This document shows, in pieces, positions 35,775 to 47,745 of a DNA stretch of 62,182 nt. The DNA is taken from contig JBAYUI010000003.1 of assembly GCA_041675165.1 (NCBI GenBank), positions 1-62,182 on the forward strand, in the 5' to 3' direction. This DNA comes from Parcubacteria group bacterium (GTDB lineage: Bacteria; Patescibacteriota; Minisyncoccia; Moranbacterales; UBA2206). The first letter of the stretch is position 1; every line of letters begins with the position of its first letter. Made by a program: the position numbers and the translations under genes. The notes under the pieces are model-generated. The model was not told the DNA's origin and did not search any database. It saw only the letters and a list, made by a program, of their open reading frames with translations.

Positions 35775-35781
35775 AAAATTG

Positions 35782-35855
35782 AGGTCGCGGTGGGATTTGC
35801 ACCCACGAAATAGCGGTTTTGCAGACCGCCGCGTTAGCTACTTCGCCACACGACC
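35782..35855 (-). tRNA. tRNA-Cys(GCA)
   Basis: GCGGT-CTGCAAA-ACCGC; U discriminator; 5' end overlapped by the LAGLIDADG ORF. Confidence 0.93.
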
Positions 35856-36571
35856 TTATGCTTTTTTATTATTTTTTTCACCTCCTCATCGCTTCTTTTC
35901 GGCCTCAAAATAAAATATTCACAAAATTTTACATATTTTCTTCTTAGAAATTCTAACCCCTTTTTGCCGTAGATAAATTTAAAAATCTTTATACTATCCT
36001 CAGTCGAAAAAGCCAACATAAAAGATTTACATCCGTTATAAACTTTTTCTTGCTTAGTGTTTATAATATTTTTTGTTTTTTTAGCCAACGCTTCTAAAAA
36101 TTCTTTACTACCGCAAGTAAACACGACCCTTAGCCCCTTTATTATCTCCTCATCATCTTTATTCCTCCCCTTTCTTAATAATACACAGCCATCCCCATCA
36201 AAATATCCCAAAATAAAACTACTTAAATATTTTTTCGGTACATCTGGAAATTTTATTGTTAAAGATTTTTTCGGGAATAATCCAAGCCTCGTTAAATCAT
36301 CATACAAGACATGACTTCCGATTCTTAGAAGATATTGTTTTTGTCTTTTACTGTTAGGATGTTCCGTTTCAATTATATTATGTTCGGAAGATAGCCACTT
36401 TTTTATTCTTAATATATTTTCTCTGTCTACACTAGAAACCCTGACATATTTACCACGCAGATAACTAGCATCTTCAAGACTGCCATCAGCATATAAATAC
36501 CCCAAAACGTAGGCCATCTTATGCGACCATCTTTTGAAAAAATTTTCATTCACAGCATACTTTATTCCCAT
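35834..36571 (-). CDS. Free-standing double-motif LAGLIDADG endonuclease-like protein
   Basis: AYVLGYLYADGS and SFILGYFDGDGC motifs; AT-rich. Confidence 0.9.
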   Translation of the reverse strand: MGIKYAVNENFFKRWSHKMAYVLGYLYADGSLEDASYLRGKYVRVSSVDRENILRIKKWLSSEHNIIETEHPNSKRQKQYLLRIGSHVLYDDLTRLGLFPKKSLTIKFPDVPKKYLSSFILGYFDGDGCVLLRKGRNKDDEEIIKGLRVVFTCGSKEFLEALAKKTKNIINTKQEKVYNGCKSFMLAFSTEDSIKIFKFIYGKKGLEFLRRKYVKFCEYFILRPKRSDEEVKKIIKKHKVVWRSS

Positions 36572-46578: not shown

Positions 46579-47265
46579 TTAGCTATAATCAGATTTTAAA
46601 CCATCTATCCAGCCGATAACTTTAAAAAATAATTTTACATCATTTATTCTAATGTGAACAGTGCCGTGAGTCAAGCTGTCTTCATCTCTTTTGCCTTGAC
46701 TTGATTTGCTTACCGAACAACACGTTTTGATGAATTGGTCTTGTGGAATATTTGTCAGGCTAGACCAGTACGTCACTGACTTTTCAATATCCACGTTTTT
46801 ATGCGCTATCAGCTGGACTTTTATCTTATCTTCTTTAATTTTTAAAAATTTTTTGAAAAATCTTACCATGATCACTACCATCTTCGGATCAGAATTGGTA
46901 AAATCTATCGCTTTCCATTTACTGCCTTGTGCGCCCTTCTTATATCCTTCCGCCCAATATAAAGAAATTCCAACCAAAAATAATTTATCTTTTTTTAAGA
47001 TAGAAAACTCTTTTTTTGCCAGGGAGCGAATTTTAGCTGCCCTTTCCTTGGCCAATTTCGTCTGGTTCCTATTTCTATTTATGAGTCCCTTGACACTACC
47101 TTCAAAAACTCTGCTTGCCAATCTTTTTTTCGCTTTCTGAGAAATTTCGATACCTGCCAACCAATAGCTCAATGTGCTTTTAGGAACTTTCAGCCTATCT
47201 CCTATTTCATTATAGCTGTACCCTTGTTTTCTTAGTTTTACAGCTTGCAGTTTATCTTTTCTCAT
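46579..47265 (-). CDS. HTH + degenerate LAGLIDADG-like protein
   Basis: N-terminal HTH (LRKQGYSYNEI..RLKVPKSTLSYW); GISLYWAEG; FTNSDP..V; stop 2 nt before tRNA-Gly. Confidence 0.75.
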   Translation of the reverse strand: MRKDKLQAVKLRKQGYSYNEIGDRLKVPKSTLSYWLAGIEISQKAKKRLASRVFEGSVKGLINRNRNQTKLAKERAAKIRSLAKKEFSILKKDKLFLVGISLYWAEGYKKGAQGSKWKAIDFTNSDPKMVVIMVRFFKKFLKIKEDKIKVQLIAHKNVDIEKSVTYWSSLTNIPQDQFIKTCCSVSKSSQGKRDEDSLTHGTVHIRINDVKLFFKVIGWIDGLKSDYS

Positions 47266-47324
47266 ATAAATTGAACCTACGATATATATACCATAATTAT
47301 ATCATAGGTTCAATTTTTGTACAG

Positions 47325-47641
47325 TGGTGCCGGGTCCCAGGATTGAACTGGGGACACAAGGATTTTCCTTGATAATTTTTCTTGGATTTCCCCAAGGATC
47401 GGACTATTTCATCATCCTGAAATAAAATCAGGAGTTGGGCGCTATTGCAAGATTATTGTTGGGACTCACTTGCTAGTCTCTACACTTTCCTCAAAACTTA
47501 AACCCTCTGAGGCTTAGCTCGAGATTACCTTATTGTTTTTCAACAACTTAGGCTTCCTCGAATTCACCCAATTTTCATTTCCAAATTACTCTGGAACGGA
47601 CCGAAAATCAGTCCTCTGCTCTACCACTGAGCTAACCCGGC
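47325..47641 (-). tRNA. tRNA-Phe(GAA), intron-containing (exons 47610-47641 and 47325-47367)
   Basis: Joined exons give GAGGA-CT|GAAAA-TCCTT and a full cloverleaf with CCA. Confidence 0.93.
47368..47609 (-). ncRNA. Group I self-splicing intron (242 nt, no ORF) after U33 of tRNA-Phe
   Basis: P1 GGACU/GGUCC with U.G at the splice site; terminal G; P3 UUGGGUG/CGCCCAA; P7 GACUA/UAGUC; P2, P8 and P9 hairpins. Confidence 0.9.
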
Positions 47642-47647
47642 CCTTAT

Positions 47648-47745
47648 CATATTATCATTTTAACATATTAGCATTTTAGCAAACTAGGCTATGATTGCTA
47701 AAAGTTTTTTGTTAATATGTTAAAATGTTAGTATGTTAAAATGCT
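47648..47745. repeat. Inverted array of degenerate 8-mers (ttaacata/ttagcatt vs atgttaaa)
   Basis: Between tRNA-Phe and tRNA-Val; a related half-array (atgctaac/atgctaaa/atgttaac) is at 6850-6885. Confidence 0.65.

Follow-up and report, generated by a model that had tools for sequence, protein, structure and literature searches.

Does a bacterial genome for which no tRNA-Phe is reported really lack the gene, or does it carry the gene in a form that default searches do not recognize? The question is raised by a stretch of DNA of 62,182 nucleotides (nt) from a Parcubacteria group bacterium (GTDB lineage Bacteria; Patescibacteriota; Minisyncoccia; Moranbacterales; UBA2206), positions 1 to 62,182 of the forward strand of contig JBAYUI010000003.1 in the NCBI GenBank assembly GCA_041675165.1. 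The whole of this stretch is here called the window, and coordinates are window positions unless stated otherwise. On its minus strand a tRNA-Phe(GAA) gene is split in the anticodon loop by an insert of 242 nt, which is very probably a functional group I intron interrupting the single tRNA-Phe(GAA) gene of the genome between U33 and G34.

The classical bacterial hosts of tRNA group I introns are Leu(UAA), fMet, Ile(CAU) and Arg(CCU), all of them with introns of the IC3 subgroup, and altogether 21 host/site types have been catalogued, including one named Phe.2Ug (Williams, 2020; bioRxiv 10.1101/2020.01.27.920355). It has also been reported that group I introns make some tRNAs of the candidate phyla radiation (CPR) hard to detect (Lui et al., 2021; PMC8172020).

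A split tRNA-Phe gene

Run with default settings on the whole genome, ARAGORN returned 42 tRNAs and tRNA-Phe was absent from the output. The Rfam tRNA model had no match at the split gene either, and no second tRNA-Phe was found in the assembly (859 kb, 27 contigs, 91.95% complete). The intron mode of ARAGORN, in turn, called tRNA-Phe c[47325,47641] (gaa) i(34,242), a minus-strand gene of 317 nt (47325..47641) made up of a 75-nt tRNA and a 242-nt intron. In minus-strand order the gene reads GCCGGGUUAGCUCAGUGGUAGAGCAGAGGACU / GAUUUUCGG...AUUAUCAAG / GAAAAUCCUUGUGUCCCCAGUUCAAUCCUGGGACCCGGCACCA, the slashes marking the exon-intron borders. As read from the sequence, the 5' exon extends from G1 to U33 (47610..47641, minus strand) and has 32 nt, position 17 being absent, while the 43-nt 3' exon (47325..47367, minus strand) extends from G34 to A76, begins with the anticodon G34-A35-A36 and encodes the CCA end. 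Between them lies the intron (47368..47609, minus strand), supported by the Rfam model RF00028 and by covariation, with G 47609 as its first base and the terminal omega-G at 47368.

Joined in silico, the two exons give a perfect canonical cloverleaf of 75 nt that ARAGORN calls tRNA-Phe(gaa), and the exon-exon joint after U33 would read ...GGACU/GAAAAUCC... The 5' exon matches the intronless tRNA-Phe of two congeners, G001 and G002, at 100% (query 1-34). The one-base offset in the ARAGORN call arises because the intron and the 3' exon both start with G; the sequence alone permits a cut after U33 or after G34. Since the U at position -1 and the terminal G of the intron are satisfied by the U33 cut alone, the splice site is placed after U33. 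No open reading frame (ORF) lies wholly inside the intron, the four ORFs of at least 20 amino acids (aa) found there (32-48 aa) all crossing into an exon or the flank, and no terminal repeats were found on the insert.

Structure of the intron

The Rfam model RF00028 (Intron_gpI), for which the gathering score is 50 bits, matches 47619..47380 on the minus strand with 82.7 bits (E 1.6e-19) over its full length, model positions 1-253. All elements described below are on the same strand. P1 (47598..47614) is formed by the exon sequence GGACU (47614..47610) and the intron guide GGUCC (47602..47598), with a U.G wobble between U33 (47610) and G (47602) at the 5' splice site. The loop of P1 holds the P10 guide AUUUUC (47603..47608), which can pair over 6 bp with GAAAAU (47367..47362), the first bases of the 3' exon, so that the P1 and P10 guides are contiguous, which is the classical arrangement. 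P2 (47579..47596) is a hairpin of UUCCAGA/UUUGGAA closed by a GUAA tetraloop of the GNRA type.

The two strands of P3 (47571..47565 with 47441..47435; overall 47435..47571) enclose P4, P5, P6, P6a and the 5' strand of P7. P7 pairs GACUA (47478..47474) with UAGUC (47406..47402), spans 47402..47478 as a pseudoknot across P3 and is aligned to the P7 of the Rfam model; by analogy it would be the guanosine-binding helix. Next to the 5' strand of P7 stands a P7.1 hairpin (47447..47473) with the stem GCAAG/CUUGC and a loop of 17 nt, UGAGUCCCAACAAUAAU, whose CCC (47463..47461) has a proposed partner in the GGG of the P6a loop (47503..47505) in a loop-loop contact. P8 (47433..47429 with 47419..47415) and P9 (47396..47392 with 47385..47381, with a GAAA-type loop) complete the structure (47381..47433). 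The GUAA of L2, the GAAA of L9 and the small size are traits of subgroup IC3, whereas the criterion for IC3 specifies no P7.1/P7.2 and a P7.1 hairpin is present here. The core is compact and IC3-like, P2 and P9 being capped by GNRA loops, and the P7.1 hairpin comes in addition.

Covariation among homologous introns

Distinct split tRNA-Phe genes, 61 in number, were aligned with MAFFT, and pairs were counted against the structure written from the window sequence. Across these homologues 92% of the cells are paired, compared to 78.4% after shuffling, and 41 pairs are changed on both sides where 30 would be expected. The covariation score is 0.418 vs. 0.172 for the shuffled alignments, none of the 500 shuffles reaching the observed value, and it falls to 0.149 or less when the partners are shifted by 1-3 columns.

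The most telling signal comes from the helices that contain exon sequence. The U.G pair of P1 is conserved in 61/61 homologues, and the pairs of P1 adjacent to it switch (GC:34/CG:27 and CG:33/AU:28) in step with the exon. One pair of P10 switches as well (CG:32/UA:28), tracking A37/G37 between the exon types. As a result two matched sets are seen: exons of the type GGACU/GAAAAU go with the guide UUUUC-GGUCC, and those of the type GCCCU/GAAGAG with UCUU-UGGGGC. Such co-evolution of exon and guide would be difficult to account for without selection on splicing.

Compensatory changes were found in P2, P3, P4, P6, P6a, P7.1 and P9. Each of the 7 pairs of P2 has changed on both sides, and 94% of its cells are paired. 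Pairing reaches 99.5% in P3, which has 4 compensatory pairs, 100% in P4, and 97-99% in P6 and P6a, where compensatory pairs occur again. P9 is 96% paired and 5/5 of its pairs are compensatory, yet approximately half of the homologues have no P9. The low values for P5 (56.6% paired) and P8 (71.5%) are attributed to MAFFT misaligning the variable loops in these regions. In the P7.1 stem 4/5 pairs co-vary, and the 17-nt loop is almost invariant, 12/17 positions being strictly so in the 61 sequences.

The original prediction, made from the letters of the window, had proposed a group I intron at position 33/34 of tRNA-Phe(GAA) at 47325-47641, with a 242-nt ORF-less insert after U33, and had named P1 with its U.G pair, the terminal G, P3, P7 (GACUA/UAGUC), P7.1, P8 and P9. 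The coordinates and the length proved exact, and every one of these elements is present and backed by the comparison of the homologues. It had also foreseen that standard scanners would miss the gene and leave the genome apparently without tRNA-Phe, as happens with ARAGORN at its default settings and with the tRNA model of Rfam.

Distribution of the intron

In a DNA search of 61 related genomes, 12, the present one included, proved to carry this insert at an identical position in tRNA-Phe, within a syntenic cluster of Leu-Val-Phe-Gly tRNA genes. The related inserts are 72-92% identical and 234-299 nt long. When one genome per species was scanned for the P7.1 signature, at least 119 loci were retrieved, and 55 of the first 80 are in tRNA-Phe(GAA); the Phe loci retrieved are mostly from Patescibacteria. 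Within the genus, G003 has the intron (92% identical), and G001 and G002 are intronless with a sequence equal to the spliced product. The spacers between tRNA-Phe and tRNA-Gly in the four congeners are mutually unrelated.

The split tRNA-Phe genes of G009 and G057 (L011 and L012), which are listed as different genera, G057 even as another family, are identical except for the length of the called 3' end. In addition, G009 (170 contigs) has two differing copies of the split gene together with the neighbouring ORF described below. The pattern in these two genomes points to bins that contain mixed strains or share contigs.

Splicing and its alternatives

The intron is most probably self-splicing. 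If it works like the characterized group I introns, the split gene would be transcribed as a precursor of 317 nt, in which the guide 5'-AUUUUC-GGUCC-3' would pair with both exon ends, forming P1 (with U33.G) and P10 (G34-U39). A free guanosine bound at P7 would then attack after U33, and the released 3'-OH of U33 would attack after the terminal G (47368), so that ligation of the exons would yield a normal tRNA-Phe and release the intron. Catalysis of splicing, both in vitro and in vivo, is inferred here.

Several points weigh against a functional intron in the only tRNA-Phe gene. No direct evidence of splicing was obtained, the matching RNA consisting of metatranscriptome contigs of relatives only. 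Two such contigs (X25 record 5 and X26 record 8) span the exon-intron boundary and look unspliced, and a contig with joined exons (X27 record 12) could equally derive from an intronless relative with identical exons. P7 is invariant in 61/61 homologues and hence gives no covariation signal, and the same is true of the two loops of the proposed L6a-L7.1 contact, which are (near-)invariant within the Phe family. Finally, approximately 8% of the genome is unassembled, leaving room for another tRNA-Phe.

Of the other explanations, the one that survives best concerns the neighbouring gene. A protein of 228 aa is encoded at 46579..47265 on the minus strand, 60 nt downstream of tRNA-Phe and ending 2 nt before tRNA-Gly. 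An inverted repeat of 19 bp (95%) with a TATAAT-like centre (47268..47316) separates the 3' end of tRNA-Phe from this ORF; it is kept in G012 and may be the promoter/operator of the ORF or a terminator of the tRNA. The protein has an N-terminal helix-turn-helix (HTH) domain of the HTH_23 family and an uncharacterized alpha/beta domain, recognized by no library, with the conserved motifs LYWAEGYK, NSDP, YWS and YGT, and its AlphaFold2 model has a pLDDT of 94. Searches against Pfam and NCBIfam returned HTH matches only, as did Pfam with 56 relatives of the protein. Foldseek comparison of the model with the PDB gave nothing significant (best E 0.1, to OmpA-like domains) and no LAGLIDADG structure, and with the viral models of BFVD it gave HTH matches only. 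Assignment of the protein to the LAGLIDADG endonucleases was considered and rejected, as neither a profile nor a fold of that type matched and hhalign against the genuine LAGLIDADG_3 family returned a probability of 0.6%. The sole hint in that direction is a weak match (E 0.015) to I-DmoI at the sequence-profile level.

The gene and the intron are linked nonetheless. Among the split tRNA-Phe loci whose flanks are complete, 32 of 62 have the gene within 300 nt of the tRNA, compared to 0/9 intronless loci. When loci were chosen by protein similarity alone (L304-L362), an intron-bearing tRNA was found within 450 nt in 48/59, and in 42/47 of those with full flanks. In most cases the tRNA immediately precedes the family gene in the same orientation, the gap between them having a median of 63 nt, and the family proteins have approximately 200-245 aa. 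Beside the 48 loci the host tRNAs are Phe (38), Leu-CAA (5), Met (2) and Tyr (1), plus two that ARAGORN called Glu and Ser; more distant family members adjoin a split tRNA-Thr(GGU) in four relatives. The linkage is real, but it is a genetic one only, and the protein might serve in homing, as a maturase or in regulation.

It could be, then, that the group I intron is not autonomous in the cell. Its efficient splicing or its spread would depend on a trans-acting role of the adjacent HTH protein, which might be an RNA cofactor of the maturase kind or else a free-standing homing endonuclease that moves the ORF-less intron. The position of the family beside intron-bearing tRNA genes speaks for this, and so do its subfamilies, which follow the type of host (Phe, Leu(CAA), Met, Tyr and Thr(GGU)), the occurrence of orthologues with at least 52% identity in 8 of the 12 related genomes that carry the intron, the present one counted among them, and in 0/49 intronless ones, and, faintly, the resemblance of the LYWAEG region to I-DmoI. 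However, about half of the intron-bearing tRNA-Phe loci are without the gene, and G003 keeps the intron without it, so that the intron persists, and presumably splices, alone. No nuclease or maturase family is recognized in the protein, there is no significant fold match, the profile-profile comparison with LAGLIDADG_3 is not significant, and a few family members adjoin intronless tRNAs. We regard such a dependence as conceivable, though rather unlikely.

A decayed, non-functional copy, with the working tRNA-Phe hidden in the unassembled part of the genome, is a much poorer explanation. A completeness of 91.95% would allow it, and an intact tRNA-Phe elsewhere, together with a lack of splicing, had been named as the sign of such decay, but no second tRNA-Phe was found in this 92%-complete assembly. 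Both exons are intact and identical to the functional alleles of the congeners, the entire catalytic core is conserved and co-varies, and in eight other intron-bearing genomes, which are 94-100% complete, the query exons match at the split gene alone, making it the sole Phe match there as well. Decay is accordingly very improbable. An assembly chimera or an insert of another kind (an insertion sequence element, a group II intron or an archaeal-type protein-spliced intron) can be dismissed, since the same base is hit in independent assemblies from many studies, a recurrence that refutes it, the group I model matches at full length, and the insert holds neither an ORF nor terminal repeats. A functional group I intron remains the explanation that we favour for the split gene.

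A proposed contact between the P6a and P7.1 loops

The additional hairpin of this intron deserves separate consideration. Within the Phe family, G138 and G139 of the P6a loop are invariant and G137 nearly so, and the CCC of L7.1 is invariant too. The idea that the core of L7.1 pairs with the start of the P6a loop came from the seed sequences of other intron types in Williams (2020). The Asn.4Ug and Lys.2Ug introns (seeds Pam37.Asn.4Ug and Dba165.Lys.2Ug) share the P7.1 design, with a loop whose ends are GAG...CAAUAA and whose variable core complements the start of the P6a loop; they differ in having other host tRNAs and sites and in occurring in many phyla.

A scan for such sister introns, defined by a P7.1 loop starting with GAGGA and ending with CAAUAA, retrieved at least 120 loci, 65 of which are in tRNA-Asn(GUU). 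They span many phyla, including Cyanobacteria, Nitrospirota, Bacteroidota, Acidobacteriota and others. In 63 distinct sister introns the L7.1 core complements the bases right after the leading GAA of L6a, and the two loops change jointly (L7.1:L6a UGACC:GGUCA, ACCUG:CAGGU, CAGA:UCUG, GCGUU:AACGC, AUCC:GGAU and CCCC:GGGG). The complementarity of a loop to its own partner averages 3.9 bases in these 63 introns, compared to 3.0 for mismatched partners (permutation p<=2e-4). P7.1 thus appears, as judged from sequence comparison, to be one arm of a loop-loop tertiary helix, and in the present intron the CCC of L7.1 probably pairs with the GGG of L6a, P7.1 thereby stabilizing the core. A literature search returned nothing specific on a contact between P6a and P7.1, but much of the older group I literature was outside its reach and novelty is not implied.

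Relation to known introns and homing systems

Phenylalanine tRNA is outside the four classic hosts, as the original prediction had stated and as the catalogue of Williams (2020) bears out. The novelty that it implied does not hold, a risk that it had itself pointed out, as the seed Mba55.Phe.2Ug is already present in that catalogue and the element is widespread in Patescibacteria. The seed has the same host tRNA-Phe, the same site after the second base of the anticodon loop, U33, and the same U-1 and omega-G. Compared by eye, the core motifs AAUUCGGGGAA, GUAGAGACUA, AGCGCCC and GAUAGUCC are shared, and the 17-nt loop of P7.1, ugagucccaacaauaau, is the same letter for letter. The differences are the exon type, GCCCU in the seed and GGACU/GAAAAU here, and P9, which is reduced in the seed and present here. 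Nothing essential separates the intron of the window from the Phe.2Ug class. For Phe.2Ug, Williams (2020) gives counts in image tables only, with no structure-function detail and no neighbouring gene described, and literature searches found no description of the tRNA-Phe intron class beyond Williams (2020) and Lui et al. (2021). The locus is hence a further member of a catalogued and widespread class that is documented only in a preprint without structural discussion. In the nomenclature of Williams (2020) the classical intron in the tRNA-fMet of cyanobacteria (Biniszkiewicz et al., 1994, as cited in later work) is "fMet.2Ug", likewise at site 2, between positions 33 and 34; its host tRNA and lineage are different.

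For group I introns as such, the locus brings nothing categorically new. It does offer a clean and compact ribozyme with approximately 100 natural variants, which is handy for structure-function work, e.g., on the L6a-L7.1 contact. The IC3 introns of tRNA genes, such as those in the tRNA-Ile(CAU) of Azoarcus and the tRNA-Leu(UAA) of Anabaena and plastids, are compact ORF-less ribozymes of 200-250 nt inserted in the anticodon loop. The present intron resembles them in the GNRA tetraloops of P2 and P9, in the lack of P5abc and in the use of anticodon-arm sequence in P1 and P10. It differs in site and host and in the extra P7.1 between P7 and the 3' strand of P3, with its conserved loop apparently pairing with L6a.

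The consequences for genome annotation are more practical. With default settings, tRNA finders leave this and many other CPR genomes apparently without tRNA-Phe, which skews completeness estimates and inference on codon use or tRNA import, and an intron-aware search corrects this.

In T4-like phages and in cyanophages, ORF-less group I introns reportedly spread by collaborative homing with endonuclease genes that are free-standing (Bonocora and Shub, 2009; Zeng et al., 2009). The likeness to the present case is that an ORF-less intron is tightly linked to a free-standing gene family that tracks the intron-bearing targets. The differences are that no nuclease domain is recognizable in the neighbouring protein here and that the setting is a cellular tRNA cluster and not a phage gene. 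The linkage to one protein family is in any case a route to asking how ORF-less bacterial tRNA introns spread. We tentatively suggest, and with some doubt, that the ORF-less tRNA introns of Patescibacteria (Phe, Leu-CAA, Met, Tyr and Thr-GGU) are each partnered with a dedicated free-standing gene of one uncharacterized family (HTH plus a new alpha/beta domain with the LYWAEG motif) approximately 60 nt downstream, which may move them by collaborative homing, with a nuclease of an unrecognized type, or aid their splicing, and that, separately, the P7.1 tRNA introns may be a structural subclass held together by the L6a-L7.1 helix.

A candidate second intron and other observations

In the same genome tRNA-Thr(GGU), on contig 2 at 62616-62893 of the plus strand (L002:317-594), is split after U36 by an insert of 204 nt according to the intron mode of ARAGORN, and is otherwise missing from the default tRNA list. 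This insert, too, has a U at position -1 and a terminal G, and it recurs in 8 of the 61 related genomes. RF00028 gave no match to the insert and seven homologues even at E<1. Alignment folding yielded P2, P4-P5, P6, P7 (GACUG/CAGUC), P8 and P9, with 19/45 pairs compensatory, and CCC/GGGG stretches are placed for P3. On these grounds the Thr insert is a candidate for a compact group-I-like intron.

In a relative (L006; G051:C16), a tRNA-Leu(CAA) gene at 779-1478 stands beside a split tRNA-Phe and has an ARAGORN-called intron of 627 nt, which could fit an ORF.

Elsewhere in the window, a free-standing LAGLIDADG_3 gene with a double motif (Pfam E 2.7e-12; 35834..36571, minus strand) overlaps at its end the 5' part of tRNA-Cys (35781-35855), at which no intron was found. 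This is the genuine LAGLIDADG_3 gene with which the 228-aa protein showed no significant similarity.

Upstream of the split gene, the AT-rich spacer between tRNA-Val and tRNA-Phe contains an imperfect palindrome (47644-47743) with arms of 30 nt that are 84-87% complementary and that may serve as a promoter/operator or in processing.

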